This document shows, one piece after another, positions 14,501 through 49,003 of a stretch of 64,000 nt of DNA. The notes below the pieces were generated by a model. It did no database searches and was not told the origin of the DNA. It worked only from the letters and a program-made list of their open reading frames with translations. How positions within the stretch are numbered: the stretch's first letter is position 1; each line of letters opens with the position of its first letter. A program made the translations under genes and the position numbers. Source of the stretch: a virus. The stretch covers positions 1-64,000 of IMG/VR virus record IMGVR_UViG_3300047299_000067. The stretch is one strand, 5' to 3'.

Positions 14501-14508
14501 TATAAATA
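14501..14508 (+). promoter_or_regulatory. Putative late promoter TATAAATA heading the enzyme cluster
   Basis: Exact T4 gp55-type late consensus in the short gap between the structural genes and the enzyme block. Confidence 0.7.
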
Positions 14509-14529
14509 GTTAAAATAGCATTTAATACA

Positions 14530-14901
14530 ATGGAGCTCTGGATGGATGATAAACTCAAAGCTGCCTTAGAGTTTAGCAATTACCGCTTAACTTTAAGCAA
14601 TCAAAAACAAAATCTCAAGCAGCGAATGAACACTATGTTAACCGTAGGTTACATGAGTTCGCTTTTCACGGCAAAAATCGAATTACTCAATTTTGTCAAA
14701 CAACTAATCGATCTCGGGGCAGAACGTTATATCATATTGGATGATAACGAAAACCCAGTACTTGTTTCCAACTTACAAGAGTTTCACGAAAAATTGTTTA
14801 GTGCATACACAGAAGCATTAAATGAATATTATGTAGAATCCGAAAAGTTAAAGAAACAACGCGACACTAGCGGATTGGTTGGAGTAAATGAAAAAGTTTG
14901 A
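14530..14901 (+). CDS. Hypothetical phage protein (start may be 14542)
   Basis: ORF; GGAG RBS precedes the ATG at 14542. Confidence 0.7.
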   Translation: MELWMDDKLKAALEFSNYRLTLSNQKQNLKQRMNTMLTVGYMSSLFTAKIELLNFVKQLIDLGAERYIILDDNENPVLVSNLQEFHEKLFSAYTEALNEYYVESEKLKKQRDTSGLVGVNEKV

Positions 14902-15781
14902 ACGCGGCATACTGTTAATCGCTTATAATAACGGTAAGATAGCTTATGAAAAACTAGCTGCAATCGCAGCCAAGTGCGTTAAGCTACACATGAAAAACAA
15001 TCACGTTACGCTTTTAACTGATTATCCTACATTAAAAGCATTTGAACAGGTATATAACCAACATCAAATTGTTGAAATATTCGACCATATTATAGTCGAG
15101 GACATCGAACACGAACGTAATACTAGAACGCACAGAGACAGCCCGTGGGTTGAATTCTCAACGCAGTTTAACAATAAAAACAAGCATTCTATATTTGAAA
15201 AAAGTCCTTATAATAAAACACTAATGATCGACGTTGATTACTTAATTGGCAATGATACATTAGATGCTATATTTGATACTGACACAGAAGTTGCCATGTA
15301 CAAGCATGCAATTAGTGTTAGAAATTATGAGCCTAGAATTTGGGAACAAAAGCTACACCCCGATGGAATCGATATGTGGTGGAGTACAGCAGTGTATTGG
15401 CGCAGCGACAGCGAAACTGCTAAATTGTTTTTTGACTTATGGGCGCATGTTAAAGAAAACTATTCTTATTACAAATGGTTGTATAAATTCCCCGGCAGCT
15501 TGTTTAGAACAGACTATGCAGTTAGCATTGCTGCACATATTTTAAACGGGCATACTACAGGAAACTTAATACACGAATTGCCGGGCAAGGTTATGCGATT
15601 TAGCGAACAAATTGATGACGTTATTGAATTTACTAGCATGAGTGATATTTTGTTTTTATGCCCCGATCCTAAAGAACTTTGGAAAAATATTGCCAGCAGA
15701 ATAAAAAACGAAAACGTACACGTTATGAATAAAATGGCAATATTGCGCCACTACGACACTATTGAGAAATTTATATTATGA
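14888..15781 (+). CDS. Putative glycosyltransferase (GT-A fold, GT8-like)
   Basis: RGILLIAY N-terminus, SPYNKTLMIDVDY with DxD motif, FRTDYA. Confidence 0.6.
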   Translation: MKKFERGILLIAYNNGKIAYEKLAAIAAKCVKLHMKNNHVTLLTDYPTLKAFEQVYNQHQIVEIFDHIIVEDIEHERNTRTHRDSPWVEFSTQFNNKNKHSIFEKSPYNKTLMIDVDYLIGNDTLDAIFDTDTEVAMYKHAISVRNYEPRIWEQKLHPDGIDMWWSTAVYWRSDSETAKLFFDLWAHVKENYSYYKWLYKFPGSLFRTDYAVSIAAHILNGHTTGNLIHELPGKVMRFSEQIDDVIEFTSMSDILFLCPDPKELWKNIASRIKNENVHVMNKMAILRHYDTIEKFIL

Positions 15782-16620
15782 GCGAAGGTTATTTAATTGT
15801 TAATTGTAGTATGAAGAATTTAACGCAAGTTGAATTGTTAATTAAAAGTATTCGCTTGCACGATCCTTCTCGTCCTATTAGTATTATTGCACACGAAAAG
15901 AATTTGTCGTCTTATATTTTATACGTTGACAACGAAATATATATAGATAAGAAACGCAAAGGCGAATCGACACTTTACTTTGATTCGTTATTAGCAAGTC
16001 CTTATGAAAAAACCATTGCATTTGAACCCGATCAATTGCTAACAGAATTTAATCCAGCCGTTTGGGAAAATCTTCGTGGCATGAATTGCATTGTTATTCC
16101 AAAAACAAGATTTAATTTTGATAATACAGAATTAAAGCACGACAAGTTTACTAAAACCCTAGTTGAAAATAAAAGTTTTAACACCAACTCGTGCTTAAGT
16201 GCAATTTATTTTAATCGTGCAAAAGGCTGCGATTACGTATTTGGCCTAGCTGCACTAATTGCGGGACACTATAAGCAGCACGAATTTGTTGATTTTGCTG
16301 GCTCGTTGCCTAATAATGCTTTACCAAACTTCCCCGAAAATATTTGGCCAGCTTGGATCATGTCATTACTATCGAAAGTAGTCGAATTTAAAATAGCCAA
16401 ATTTGATTTTATTAAATGTATTGACTTTAGCCCCAGGGATAATGATATTGCCAGCGCGAATTGGACAACAAAAAAATGGACAGAGTTTTTAACATACTGG
16501 GTAAACGATACGGGCAGCATTAAAGTTGAAAATTTTGTACAGCAGGGTTTGATTAAATATTCTACCTCCGCATGGCTAAATGAACAAACGCTAACTAATT
16601 TAAGAAAAAAGTATATTTAA
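15778..16620 (+). CDS. Divergent paralog of the upstream glycosyltransferase-like protein
   Basis: EGYLIV N-terminus; SPYEKTIAFEPD aligns with SPYNKTLMIDVD, with the DxD changed to EPD. Confidence 0.5.
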   Translation: MSEGYLIVNCSMKNLTQVELLIKSIRLHDPSRPISIIAHEKNLSSYILYVDNEIYIDKKRKGESTLYFDSLLASPYEKTIAFEPDQLLTEFNPAVWENLRGMNCIVIPKTRFNFDNTELKHDKFTKTLVENKSFNTNSCLSAIYFNRAKGCDYVFGLAALIAGHYKQHEFVDFAGSLPNNALPNFPENIWPAWIMSLLSKVVEFKIAKFDFIKCIDFSPRDNDIASANWTTKKWTEFLTYWVNDTGSIKVENFVQQGLIKYSTSAWLNEQTLTNLRKKYI

Positions 16621-47064: not shown

Positions 47065-47067
47065 ATA
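47061..47067 (+). promoter_or_regulatory. Putative internal late promoter TTAAATA
   Basis: Overlaps the upstream stop codon; 5 nt before the ATG at 47073. Confidence 0.4.
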
Positions 47068-47072
47068 GTTGC

Positions 47073-47303
47073 ATGAATATAAATGATTTGTCTTTGAGAC
47101 AACTACAATTAGAAGCAGCCAGAGTAATAAGCTCTATGCCTGCAACCAACGACAACATATACAAGTTTAATCGAGCTAGCAGGCACAATAGCCAGGGTTG
47201 GTATGTTGCAGCTATTGAATGGTATGTAGCAACATACGGCGGTCTACCTAGCGAAACAGGTCCAGGTAAAGATATAAAAATGGTATACGAACAAGATGAG
47301 TGA
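47073..47303 (+). CDS. Small hypothetical protein (76 aa) between radical SAM genes
   Basis: ORF fills the gap exactly and overlaps the next gene. Confidence 0.75.
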   Translation: MNINDLSLRQLQLEAARVISSMPATNDNIYKFNRASRHNSQGWYVAAIEWYVATYGGLPSETGPGKDIKMVYEQDE

Positions 47304-48477
47304 TTTAAAAACAAGCGAATACGACTTCACGAAAATTCCGTATAAGGATTTAGTTAGAGTCGGACAACGGACAATGCTATACCGCGATATGTTTACCGTT
47401 AGTTGGCTACTAGGTAGATATTGTAACTATCGTTGCAGCTACTGCTGGCCATATGCTCGCAGTGATACAAAGGACCATCGCCCTACTCCTTTAATGTTAA
47501 GCACAGTAGACGAAATTAAACGACAAGCTCGTGAACGCGGTTTTAATAGTTTTCACTTTAGTTTAAGTGGCGGCGAACCAACATTTCATCCTGCTTACAT
47601 CGACATCCTCAATCATTTAAACAACGATGTAGCTAATACAAATTATACCAGTGTTCACATGACCAGTAACATGAGCCGACCGATGAAATGGTTTAAAGAA
47701 CAATATGTTCCTGCCGTTAAAAACTTCCATCGTGCTAGTATAACAGCCAGTTGTCACAGGGAACATGTCGATACGCAAAAGAAAGTAGAACAGTTTGCAG
47801 ACAAGTTAGTGTTATGTCAAGAATACGACACACAAGTGACAGTGAATCAAGTCATGGTGCCCGAACAGTTTTATGAAATATACGACTTAGCTCTTTACTT
47901 TCATGAACGCGGTATCAACGTTACACTAAAGCCGCAAAGCGATCCTACTGCAAGTAGAGTAGTAGATGGTTACACTGATGATATGTTAGAAAAGTTGCAC
48001 AACGGAATGCCGCAACGTGCATTTACTGAACAGAAAGCAGCAGTAGCAGGACTAATAGAACGTCCGAAGCCGACTTTTACTGTTGACAAAGCAGATCCCT
48101 TGCGTAAGCAACAAGCAACAACTCCTGCTCACTACCAAGTAGAGTTTATTGACAAGGATGGCAATCCGTGGTTCATGGATCAAGCAGAACGATTTAATGC
48201 ATTTAACTTTAACAACTTTAACAAGTGGGAATGTAGTAGCGGCTATCGCAGTATTATTATCCGTGAACCAGACGGAACAGTAAAGCGTAGTTATAGCTGT
48301 AGCGAAGTTCCATTGGGGCATATCGAAACCGGCTTTAAGTTATATGACAAACCGATGCCATGCGGCGGAACCAGTTGCGTGAGCAGCGCCGACAGTAAGA
48401 TTCCGAAAAGAGCACCTGGCACTAAGTTGCCTTTATTCCCGGGAGATAAAACATATGAAGATACTAGTAGCAGGTAA
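47296..48477 (+). CDS. Radical SAM protein with C-terminal twitch-like domain
   Basis: WLLGRYCNYRCSYC and SGGEPT; C-terminal WECSSG..YSC..PCGGTSC. Confidence 0.9.
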   Translation: MSDLKTSEYDFTKIPYKDLVRVGQRTMLYRDMFTVSWLLGRYCNYRCSYCWPYARSDTKDHRPTPLMLSTVDEIKRQARERGFNSFHFSLSGGEPTFHPAYIDILNHLNNDVANTNYTSVHMTSNMSRPMKWFKEQYVPAVKNFHRASITASCHREHVDTQKKVEQFADKLVLCQEYDTQVTVNQVMVPEQFYEIYDLALYFHERGINVTLKPQSDPTASRVVDGYTDDMLEKLHNGMPQRAFTEQKAAVAGLIERPKPTFTVDKADPLRKQQATTPAHYQVEFIDKDGNPWFMDQAERFNAFNFNNFNKWECSSGYRSIIIREPDGTVKRSYSCSEVPLGHIETGFKLYDKPMPCGGTSCVSSADSKIPKRAPGTKLPLFPGDKTYEDTSSR

Positions 48478-49003
48478 TAGCGAATACGGCCTAGCTGCCG
48501 CAATAAAAACAACATTTGGCGACCACGACATAACTTATCTAAGCAGAGCAAGCGGCTATGATTTAACAAAAGCAGAACACCAGCAAAGGTTTGCGGAAGT
48601 TGCAGTTGACTTTGATGTTATCATTTTATCCAGTGCATTATGGAAGTTTAATCAAACTGTATTGCTAGACGTTGTATATAAGAAACTAAAAGCCGAAAAC
48701 AAAGAGCCATTGATTGTTTGTATAGGTAGCACAACCGATCGAGTAAACAAAGCGACAGACTGGTTATACAATGCCGAAAAGAAAGCGCTTAGAGATTATT
48801 GCAACAGTTTGAGCTTATCCGGCGTATGGAACAAAGGACCACGAGTAAGTTATATTAGTTTTGGCACACTAGATAATATGCAACATAAACATCCTAGCAG
48901 AAAGACTATGCCAATAGAACAGGCTGCTCAATATATCAAATGGATAATCGAGCAGCCTGTTGGGTTGCATGTAAACGAATTAAGTTTAGATCCTATACAG
49001 TGA
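48455..49003 (+). CDS. Short-chain dehydrogenase/reductase-like protein (compact)
   Basis: KILVAGNSEYGLA Rossmann start, IGS, YNAEK (YxxxK). Confidence 0.7.
   Translation: MKILVAGNSEYGLAAAIKTTFGDHDITYLSRASGYDLTKAEHQQRFAEVAVDFDVIILSSALWKFNQTVLLDVVYKKLKAENKEPLIVCIGSTTDRVNKATDWLYNAEKKALRDYCNSLSLSGVWNKGPRVSYISFGTLDNMQHKHPSRKTMPIEQAAQYIKWIIEQPVGLHVNELSLDPIQ

Follow-up and report, generated by a model that had tools for sequence, protein, structure and literature searches.

What does a phage make with 37 co-oriented genes that include 11 radical S-adenosylmethionine (SAM) enzymes and six or more candidate glycosyltransferases, and where does the product go? The question is raised by the 64,000-nucleotide stretch of an uncultured freshwater giant phage analysed here (the window), which is the first 64 kb of a linear, 117,305-b virus record (IMG/VR IMGVR_UViG_3300047299_000067). 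The CheckV completeness of the record is 33%, so the full phage genome is probably near 350 kb, and the biosynthetic block described below (genes g01 to g36 and g34b, window positions 14530-49003) is roughly a tenth of that estimate. We predict that the block encodes a soluble, cytoplasmic line for assembly and tailoring of a glycan or glycoconjugate (probability roughly 0.75). The fuller statement, that the product sits on the virion and that a virion protein is the acceptor, is held tentatively, at a little under even odds. We observe the set of genes, the folds, conserved synteny and a lack of membrane proteins; each reaction step and the acceptor are predictions built on them.

Organization of the block and its linkage to the tail module

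Thirty-six plus-strand open reading frames (ORFs) of at least 80 amino acids (aa) occupy the block, and a 76-aa ORF (g34b) fills its only large gap, bringing the total to 37 co-oriented genes. At the 35 junctions between the long ORFs there are 29 overlaps, two abutments and four gaps (1, 3, 24 and 231 b), the longest of which contains g34b. Counting g34b, genes overlap or abut at 31 of 36 junctions, in agreement with an original prediction, made from the DNA alone, of about 37 co-oriented genes that nearly all overlap or abut. Starts are those of the longest ORF, so some overlap lengths depend on the choice of start (e.g., in g18, where the true start is probably 63 b further in). Across the 36 long-ORF proteins the highest 19-residue Kyte-Doolittle mean is 1.65, on a PP-loop strand, and no membrane-helix-like hydrophobic segment was detected (g34b lies outside that scan). 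The earlier claim that no membrane protein is present is thus upheld, and lipid-carrier export machinery is not encoded among these 36 proteins.

The block lies directly behind a baseplate gene (phrog_10646), a virion structural gene (phrog_10938) and fibre-like ORFs, as had been claimed. In all five large relatives, a homologue of the baseplate wedge gene (41-72% identical) shares the strand of the g19 or g26 homologue and lies 23-32 kb upstream of it; the corresponding distances from the baseplate gene to g19 and g26 in the window are 27 and 34 kb. Synteny across relatives was the comparison that the original prediction had proposed, and it places the block behind the baseplate gene in five of five cases, the contrary case being Ralstonia phage RsoM2USA (more than 100 kb, see below). 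In this lineage the block is tied to the tail module both physically and syntenically.

Relatives are numerous. We identified g26 relatives in 76 IMG/VR loci (51-90% identity) and 4979 g26 homologues (E <= 1e-5) in a collection of 5.8 billion proteins, the best 120 of which are all metagenomic and 71-86% identical. Stretches with a g19 relative number at least 522, from which the best 80 were retained; homologues are present in 145 phage records. Across the fetched loci the order g15-g16-g17-g18-g19-g20-g21-g22-g23-g24 is kept and is followed by a variable radical SAM section (36 proteins mapped). The nearest relative (L001/L119) lacks g27 and g34, and other relatives carry different radical SAM paralogues of the N-twitch type described below, with only 25-30% identity. 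A single-protein scan for the N-twitch type in the genomes of 185,579 species returned one locus, the 30-kb contig JAHDFM010000030.1 (L161) of a Bdellovibrionales metagenome-assembled genome (MAG), which encodes g35-, g24-, g26- and g23-like genes. This contig is probably phage DNA that was binned with the MAG, and is at best a faint hint of the host.

All hints about expression are weak. The octamer TATAAATA, which we take to be the T4 late-promoter consensus, occurs three times in the window (versus 9.9 expected) and four times in the 117-kb record, where two copies are intergenic. Short gaps before the fibre genes carry TAAATA-like variants. A strict sigma-70-type pattern (TTGAC[AT]-N15-19-TAnAAT) has nine copies in the record, eight of them intergenic and all on the minus strand between 51 and 107 kb, and no copy in the first 1-49 kb. 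The eight intergenic copies (window 51140-63966, minus strand, and record 82618-107203), several of which read TTGACACAAA-N-TATAAT, look like early promoters of the phage. A generic sigma-70 scan (85 versus 80.5 expected) and a terminator scan (52 versus 63.4 expected) performed at chance and were given no weight. Contigs from an RNA library map to one fibre gene and seven block genes, a weak observation given that DNA carry-over is possible; these contigs cover 18 of 30 bins, and uncovered bins are uninformative.

Radical SAM enzymes and a predicted partner protein

The Pfam radical SAM family PF04055 matches exactly 11 ORFs of the block (all E <= 8.1e-7), and the CxxxCxxC motif is present in all 11, which confirms the number given originally. 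Nine pass the curated cut-off of 29.5 bits, one of them only together with neighbouring stretches. Below it are g25 (about 26.7-28.1 bits), a paralogue of g24 (E 2.6e-38), and g28 (25.3 bits), which passes the NCBIfam model NF033640 (N_Twi_rSAM, twitch domain-containing radical SAM protein). Seven of the 11 match NF033640 over its full length at 191-437 bits (cut-off 170), and the remaining four (g24, g25, g31 and g35) are non-members, scoring 28-41 bits. No member above the cut-off was found in 14 control genomes, and no mention of NF033640 was found in the papers searched.

The alignment of the N-twitch proteins shows four invariant cysteines (C10, C28, C91 and C94) ahead of the CxxxCxxC motif at 147-154. 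Positions 5-86 of a profile of the seven proteins align to the C-terminal twitch domain of BtrN (E 1.3e-4), and the core of the profile aligns to BlsE, SkfB, viperin and a cyclopropyl synthase for peptides made on the ribosome and modified post-translationally (RiPPs). At the level of sequence profiles, this confirms a permuted architecture in which the auxiliary domain is N-terminal of the core; it indicates no specific substrate. BtrN, a carbohydrate-acting 2-deoxy-scyllo-inosamine dehydrogenase and the type example of the twitch domain, thus resembles the N-twitch family in that domain but carries it at the opposite end of the protein, and overall similarity is weak. BlsE is a sugar-nucleoside enzyme.

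The other radical SAM genes include what looks like a split enzyme. By hhalign, g31 matches the N-terminal part of g35 (100%) and g32 matches g35 residues 306-365 (79.5%), so that g31 and g32 together appear to be a split form of a g35-type enzyme whose fused form is encoded in the same operon. The mean column identity of g35 over 13 homologues is 79%. A weak C-terminal SPASM match was identified in g25, and g33 has a SPASM-type motif at residues 10-74.

The small protein g34b is a candidate partner of g35. We identified 37 tblastn matches to it in the fetched loci (44-87% identity), with conservation along the whole length, and in relatives it directly precedes a radical SAM gene of the g35 or g24 type. 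The predicted complex of g35 and g34b scores 0.83, versus 0.01 for the best of three controls. Of 80 solved complexes, 58 attained the mark set for such scores, as did 2 of 110 mismatched pairs (approximate counts, since our own alignments were used). The runs agree on at least 90% of contacts, the predicted local distance difference test score (pLDDT) of the partner is at least 85, and on g35 the predicted interface comprises two stretches, residues 324-346 and residues 40-73, the latter around the radical SAM cysteines. The modelling supports binding of g34b to g35. As g34b is uniformly conserved and lacks a variable core, it is more readily seen as an accessory subunit than as a precursor peptide.

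Glycosyltransferase-like proteins

Six proteins (g05, g09, g13, g20, g21 and g22) are supported as having a GT-A fold. At least eight glycosyltransferases had been proposed; the count drops to these six, with g02 only a lead as a GT8-like transferase. The proteins g05, g20, g21 and g22 are paralogues (TRANSFERASES), with g05 45% identical to g21 (hhalign 100%), and in their family (A1) D84-x-D86 is invariant in 40 sequences. The AlphaFold2 model of g21 (pLDDT 88) has a GT-A fold, and its top Foldseek match, at fold level only, is the PBCV-1 capsid glycosyltransferase 2p72 (E 4e-4, TM 0.28/0.41, 14% identity). By VIA-align, residues 20-197 match 9h6j with Z 10.6 (root-mean-square deviation (rmsd) 3.2, 145 aligned) and 6p61 and 2c0n with Z 10.0. 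The profile of family A1 had no match at E <= 1 among PDB sequences.

For g09 the AlphaFold2 model has pLDDT 78, and Foldseek returned 300 matches at E <= 0.001, led by B3GalT5 (2.8e-6) and followed by COLGALT1 and BoGT6a. VIA-align gives Z 12.0 to BoGT6a (4cj8; rmsd 3.4, 196 aligned), a GT-A match over the whole length. In the family that g09 forms with g13 (alignment A6), R160-x-D162 is invariant in 23 sequences, a variant rather than a classical DxD. One PHROG family, of unknown function, matches g09, and only viral hypothetical clusters were returned for it by ESM Atlas. Since sugar nucleotidyltransferases share the GT-A fold and occur in the same match lists, sugar transfer by g05, g09, g13 and g20-22 is something that we infer.

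The nearest named ESM Atlas clusters to g02 are Mannosyl_trans3 and Glyco_transf_8 (score 0.95, 165-167 shared features). A Pfam search of 35 members of the g01-g04, g08, g09 and g13 families matched only DUF7796 (6 of 35), and hhalign of the g01-g04 and g08 families found no link to the GT-A family at a probability of at least 50%. Homologues of g01 were identified in 11 of the 155 fetched loci; these loci extend no further than 10 kb to each side of g19 or g26, and counts of absence for g01-g08 in relatives are therefore not meaningful.

Precursor, carbamoyl, ester and PP-loop enzymes

Genes for a putative precursor module are encoded in g15-g18, and the original suggestion of such a module is supported by cupin, NTP_transf_3 and APH, Shikimate_dh_N and GatZ_KbaZ-like matches, all above cut-off. 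Residues 13-198 of g16 have partial matches to TIGR03992 and AglF/HddC-type proteins, and g17 scores 106 bits on NF009202, under its cut-off of 306. The ...RRDPFIYR tail at the C-terminus of g18 (30580-30665), identified by a motif scan, is present in 10 of 14 family members. In one relative (L121) the DPFIY tail is instead a separate 63-aa ORF (9813-10004) that overlaps the start of the carbamoyltransferase gene. This fused or split pattern links the carbamoyltransferase functionally with the Tyr-tailed peptide and the GatZ-like protein. The carbamoyltransferase, g19, had been recognised correctly, with both Pfam domains matched; it scores 139 bits on the NodU equivalog NF041651 (cut-off 1000), making it a family member rather than a NodU orthologue.

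Four SGNH proteins had been proposed, and two of them (g10 and g11) pass the DUF6071 model; they reach only 18.1 bits on Lipase_GDSL (cut-off 23.6). The other two (g12 and g14) are linked to these by hhalign (62-90%) and by an N-terminal motif, which is GDS in g10 and g14 and GCS in g11 and g12.

The two ATPases originally called QueC-like (g27 and g29) are QueC-related PP-loop ATPases, judged by their SGGxDS motif, and not QueC: Pfam QueC had no match to either at E <= 1 in the genome scan. In the PP-loop family (17 sequences), S45, G46, D49 and S50 of this motif and four C-terminal cysteines are invariant, ATP_bind_3 matches 12 members, and QueC (PF06508) matches seven at E <= 0.05 (best 5.9e-7). 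Among PDB sequences the profile of the family (A3) has only weak PP-loop matches (E 0.015-1). The idea that g27 or g29 is the missing QueC of a 7-deazaguanine module was rejected for lack of a Pfam QueC match.

Two of the original labels fared less well. The methyltransferase-like protein, g23, carries a name based only on motif resemblance: none of 21 members of its family matched a methyltransferase Pfam family, and the family profile gave no match among PDB sequences at E <= 1. The proposed short-chain dehydrogenase/reductase (SDR), g36, keeps one weak match, far below its cut-off (Table 1). A PHROG search of 20 proteins named only structural genes, beyond the g09 family and a weak QueC-like match to g27.

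Comparison with known systems

The closest published counterparts are the host recognition clusters of pelagi- and cyanomyophages. As described by Zaragoza-Solas et al. (2020, PMC7029224), these are variable regions of 34-45 kb that are joined to tail-fibre genes and contain numerous glycosyltransferases along with cassettes of radical SAM genes. A 2017 paper (PMC5332604) likewise notes a T4-like marine viral genome in which such genes number 12. The block shares with host recognition clusters its size, its linkage to tail-fibre genes in aquatic myoviruses and a homologous carbamoyltransferase (28-30% identity), and it has what defines them, being a tail-fibre-linked island with glycosyltransferases and variable radical SAM cassettes. 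It differs in lineage (a Rak2/CBB/Atu_ph07-type jumbo baseplate rather than Kyanoviridae), in being one tightly coupled operon and in the dominance of the N-twitch radical SAM family. Thus, islands similar to the block have already been published, from which it differs in these three respects. New here are g34b as a predicted radical SAM partner and the DPFIY-tailed peptide fused to the GatZ-like g18.

A small cluster in Pelagibacter phage HTVC008M encodes a glycosyltransferase, a radical SAM protein (hhalign 96.9% to g31), a methyltransferase, a carbamoyltransferase (28.5% identical), a PP-loop protein annotated as NAD synthetase, a uridine diphosphate (UDP)-glucose dehydrogenase and a 2-oxoglutarate oxygenase. 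Of these, only the carbamoyltransferase and the one radical SAM type are detectably homologous to the block. Close homologues are found in just one cultured phage, Ralstonia phage RsoM2USA, whose gp199-gp204 (MG752970, 123467-130403) are annotated as hypothetical. They include a carbamoyltransferase (gp199, 47% to g19), an N-twitch radical SAM protein (gp202, 52% to g07) and a DUF6071-like protein (24%), in about six genes versus 37 here.

Virion glycosylation has precedents as well. Freeman and colleagues in 2023 reportedly described glycosylation of the capsid and tail tube of mycobacteriophages. Such mycobacteriophage systems and that of PBCV-1 (A64R) resemble the block in having soluble, virus-encoded GT-A enzymes near structural genes; they have few transferases and are without radical SAM, PP-loop, SGNH or carbamoyl enzymes. 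For NF033640 itself the likeness is one of membership, with seven full-length proteins here in a family that is catalogued without a known reaction. We know of no host recognition cluster or comparable island that has been characterised biochemically. To this extent the original statement, that no characterised phage pathway has this size and composition, is fair; it did not reckon with the comparable islands in print (PMC7029224 and PMC5332604). No literature joining radical SAM, jumbo phage and glycosyltransferase was found, and among the papers listed on related subjects none describes this operon by title or abstract. The phage of PMC12619734 ('moraphage') has four glycosyltransferase groups in its core genome, and the available part of that paper makes no mention of radical SAM; it is not shown to be of the same lineage and was not used here.

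Proposed pathway and acceptor

We predict that the cupin, the kinase and sugar-1-phosphate nucleotidyltransferase, the AroE-like dehydrogenase and the GatZ-like protein of g15-g18 would form an unusual sugar or polyol activated with a nucleoside diphosphate. Six or more GT-A transferases (g05, g09, g13 and g20-22) may then add sugars directly to the acceptor, with no need for a lipid carrier, flippase or polymerase. The SGNH/DUF6071 proteins could attach or remove esters, and g19, of the NodU type, would attach carbamoyl groups in concert with the DPFIY-tailed peptide that forms the end of g18. The pair of QueC-related PP-loop ATPases may activate carboxylates (e.g., towards amides or nitriles). 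The 11 radical SAM enzymes, seven of them N-twitch, would perform C-H chemistry on sugars (oxidation, epimerisation, deoxygenation or C-C bond formation), with one of them, g35, binding the 76-aa g34b. The preferred acceptor would be a protein of the phage particle (the fibres, the baseplate or the 2826-aa protein) made late, alongside the enzymes.

A virion acceptor is suggested by the conserved coupling of the block to baseplate and fibre genes, by their co-orientation, by the lack of early-type promoters in the block and by the precedent of virion glycosylation. Also counted in its favour are the top Foldseek match of g21, an enzyme that glycosylates a viral capsid protein (PBCV-1), and the matches of the N-twitch profile to the twitch domain of the carbohydrate-acting BtrN and, in the core, to BlsE. 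The original prediction had placed the product of a soluble pathway on virion components; its soluble assembly and tailoring set stands, and its placement on a virion protein is plausible. No acceptor was identified by any analysis of the sequence.

Several further observations weigh against this reading. Radical SAM/SPASM/twitch enzymes more often act on peptides, and among PDB sequences a RiPP enzyme that modifies peptides (8vpo) matches the N-twitch core best. The promoter evidence is thin, with only the four copies of TATAAATA in 117 kb, and in more distant relatives a TTGACA-N15-TATAAT/TATATA-like sequence is sometimes found before the g01 homologue. In RsoM2USA over 100 kb separates the carbamoyltransferase/SGNH-like/N-twitch mini-cluster from the baseplate gene, and the analogous cluster of HTVC008M is beside ribonucleotide reductase genes and away from the fibres; thus, linkage to tail genes is not universal. 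No function could be assigned to g01-g04 and g08, and the methyltransferase label of g23 is unverified. GT-A enzymes can act on lipid-linked acceptors without having a transmembrane segment, which leaves room for host glycans.

This last point bears on the alternative that the enzymes modify the lipopolysaccharide (LPS), capsule or another envelope glycan of the host at the cytoplasmic face, blocking superinfection or keeping progeny from sticking to debris (a role proposed for the host recognition clusters of pelagimyophages), an alternative which we consider unlikely. GT-A, SGNH and carbamoyltransferase proteins are standard classes for tailoring of O-antigen, and homologues of the carbamoyltransferase are common in cyanophages and Pelagibacter phages. 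For comparable islands, which combine tail-fibre linkage, glycosyltransferases and radical SAM cassettes, the one published reading favours modification of host O-chains and not decoration of the virion (PMC7029224). However, Pfam and hydropathy scans of the block found no membrane protein, initiating phosphoglycosyltransferase, flippase or polymerase, and this large block is strictly co-oriented with late-type structural genes and lacks early-type promoters by the strict sigma-70 pattern. Moreover, a lytic jumbo phage would have little time for envelope turnover. Our best reading ranks the virion first as acceptor and the host surface second.

The product could also be a small molecule, peptide or protein (RiPP-like, aminocyclitol-like, cofactor-like, or cross-linked or epimerised structural proteins), which the transferases would decorate, a possibility to which we give still less credence. 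Its makers would be the radical SAM enzymes and PP-loop ATPases, along with g34b, the DPFIY tail and g32 as small proteins. It would account for the match of the N-twitch core to a RiPP enzyme, given that SPASM/twitch enzymes mostly act on peptides, and for the position of g34b directly before g35- and g24-type enzymes and its complex score of 0.83 versus 0.01. Moreover, AroE-like, GatZ-like and carbamoyltransferase proteins and a BtrN-like twitch are parts of aminoglycoside-type pathways. However, conservation of g34b over its full length is not what is typical of precursor peptides, the presence of six or more GT-A transferases points to an oligosaccharide, and no protease, exporter or immunity gene was detected by the Pfam and hydropathy scans of the block.

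A glycan or adduct built on a modified base of the phage DNA appears very improbable. Pyle and colleagues in 2024 are said to have described phage glycosyltransferases that build glycans on DNA; the relation of the PP-loop proteins to QueC, and the presence of GTP cyclohydrolase I and sugar-nucleotide genes elsewhere in the record, would fit such a role. DNA modification by the block is less likely because the neighbouring PF00303 gene is a true thymidylate synthase (ThyA), neither the record nor three relatives encode a detected hydroxymethylase, and genes of the 7-deazaguanine type form a module of their own at 68-77 kb, on the other strand and beside replication genes, whereas the block is in the structural region. 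Pfam QueC, moreover, finds neither g27 nor g29.

With a glycan on the virion as the preferred reading, a more specific and doubtful proposal can be made. The N-twitch proteins (NF033640) might be a set that functionalises C-H bonds of carbohydrates, each paralogue editing one position of an oligosaccharide that the soluble GT-A enzymes of the phage would build on its fibres or baseplate. The swappable radical SAM cassette could then be a 'glycan code', tuning recognition of the host or shielding the particle, with g34b and the DPFIY tail holding or shuttling intermediates.

The phage and the genes around the block

In the 15 listed records of cultured phages, among them jumbo myoviruses of the Rak2/CBB/Atu_ph07/SCTP-2 type, counterparts of the baseplate wedge protein are 31.8-36.9% identical. 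Compared by megablast with 50,697 phage records, 24.5 kb of the block gave no match. Near-identical DNA is present in freshwater and groundwater metagenomes from several studies.

Upstream of the block, the 2826-aa protein sits between the baseplate wedge and the fibre-like genes and is a candidate acceptor or scaffold. The 309-aa ORF (12537-13466) has a tail-fibre-like C-terminus (phrog_19602, phrog_6427). On the 3' side, the coding strand switches and thymidylate synthase and other genes follow. The adjacent PF00303 gene is above three equivalog cut-offs for ThyA, and on these scores its candidacy as a hydroxymethylase was rejected. No second PF00303 gene was identified in the record or in the three relatives (65-66% complete).

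A second sugar-related module is encoded on the minus strand, beside replication genes (record 68205-77475). It includes GTP cyclohydrolase I (FolE), UDP-glucose dehydrogenase-like, cytidylyltransferase-like and ADH-like proteins, GFO/IDH/MocA proteins, a PP-loop ORF with a weak QueC match and a 514-aa ORF without a Pfam match. This module is possibly a pathway for modification of DNA bases, and a better candidate for that role than the block.

Table 1. Positions in the window of the block genes and of neighbouring features, with the main evidence for each
Feature	Position	Strand	Evidence or remark
Baseplate wedge subunit, 1118 aa	51..3407	+	phrog_10646, E 9.5e-245
Virion structural protein, 2826 aa	3404..11884	+	phrog_10938, E 3.9e-189
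Three small fibre-like/structural ORFs (189, 309, 339 aa)	11936..14485	+	phrog_11259; weak Peptidase_G2 and Phage_cement matches
TATAAATA octamer (T4 late-promoter type)	14501..14508	+	22 nt before the ATG of g01, first gene of the block; weak evidence
g01, 123 aa	14530..14901	+	No Pfam or PHROG match
g02, 297 aa, possible GT8-like transferase	14888..15781	+	ESM Atlas lead; no Pfam match
g03 (280 aa), g04 (315 aa)	15778..17568	+	No Pfam or PHROG match
g05, GT-A-fold glycosyltransferase-like	17543..18514	+	g21 paralogue; family A1 DxD
g06 and g07, N-terminal-twitch radical SAM	18518..21523	+	NF033640 328.9 and 308.9 bits; CNFKCMYC, CNFACSYC
g08, 228 aa	21511..22197	+	No Pfam or PHROG match
g09, GT-A-fold glycosyltransferase-like (DUF7796 type)	22187..23083	+	AlphaFold2 model, Foldseek, VIA-align
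g10 and g11, DUF6071/SGNH-like	23080..24803	+	PF19547 48.2 and 44.1 bits (cut-off 27)
g12, weak SGNH-like	24755..25420	+	hhalign to g10 88.8%, to g11 62.2%
g13, GT-A-like, g09 paralogue	25405..26112	+	hhalign to g09 94.1%
g14, SGNH-like	26085..26903	+	hhalign to g10 90.0%, to g11 86.9%
g15, cupin	26894..27343	+	Cupin_2 29.5 bits (cut-off 27.2); up to 93% identical in relatives
g16, sugar-1-phosphate nucleotidyltransferase-like domain fused to APH-type kinase	27315..28871	+	NTP_transf_3 and APH above cut-off
g17, shikimate-dehydrogenase-like oxidoreductase, divergent AroE-type	28868..29608	+	Shikimate_dh_N 43.7 bits
g18, GatZ/KbaZ-like with fused C-terminal ...RRDPFIYR peptide	29532..30665	+	PF08013 47.1 bits, above cut-off
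g19, NodU/CmcH-type carbamoyltransferase	30662..32134	+	Carbam_trans_C 185.3 bits, Carbam_trans_N 134.5 bits
g20, g21, g22, tandem GT-A-fold glycosyltransferase-like paralogues	32159..34572	+	Family A1; g21 model
g23, conserved 291-aa protein	34557..35432	+	21 invariant columns in alignment A2
g24 and g25, radical SAM, N-terminal core	35432..37737	+	PF04055 (g24 42.5 bits); CNASCPMC, CNAACPGC
g26, N-terminal-twitch radical SAM	37737..39143	+	NF033640 437 bits
g27, PP-loop ATPase, QueC-related	39136..40071	+	g29 paralogue; phrog_1550 (QueC-like) E 1.5e-4
g28, N-terminal-twitch radical SAM	40073..41443	+	NF033640 190.8 bits
g29, PP-loop ATPase, QueC-related	41436..42278	+	Weak ATP_bind_3 match
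g30, N-terminal-twitch radical SAM	42271..43581	+	NF033640 373.2 bits
g31 (short radical SAM, 241 aa) and g32 (Cys-rich, 144 aa)	43578..44730	+	hhalign to g35
g33 and g34, N-terminal-twitch radical SAM	44727..47064	+	NF033640 223.1 and 235.4 bits
g34b, conserved 76-aa protein	47073..47303	+	Under the 80-aa ORF threshold; predicted g35 partner
g35, radical SAM with Cys-rich C-terminal domain	47296..48477	+	PF04055 48.3 bits
g36, 182-aa Rossmann/SDR-like (weak)	48455..49003	+	NF038213 20.3 bits (cut-off 300); N-terminal Gly-rich motif

Implications

The operon is abundant in nature, and many contigs of uncultured phages carry it with conserved synteny. Among its core enzymes, the carbamoyltransferase, the DUF6071 protein and the N-twitch radical SAM enzyme have a culturable entry in RsoM2USA, which could be re-annotated and serve as an experimental model. 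Were the product to sit instead on the host surface or on DNA, the operon would still represent a large untouched reservoir of radical carbohydrate chemistry. If the product does sit on the virion, this would be the most elaborate virus-encoded protein glycosylation known in a bacteriophage, and would provide the first function for the radical SAM family NF033640.

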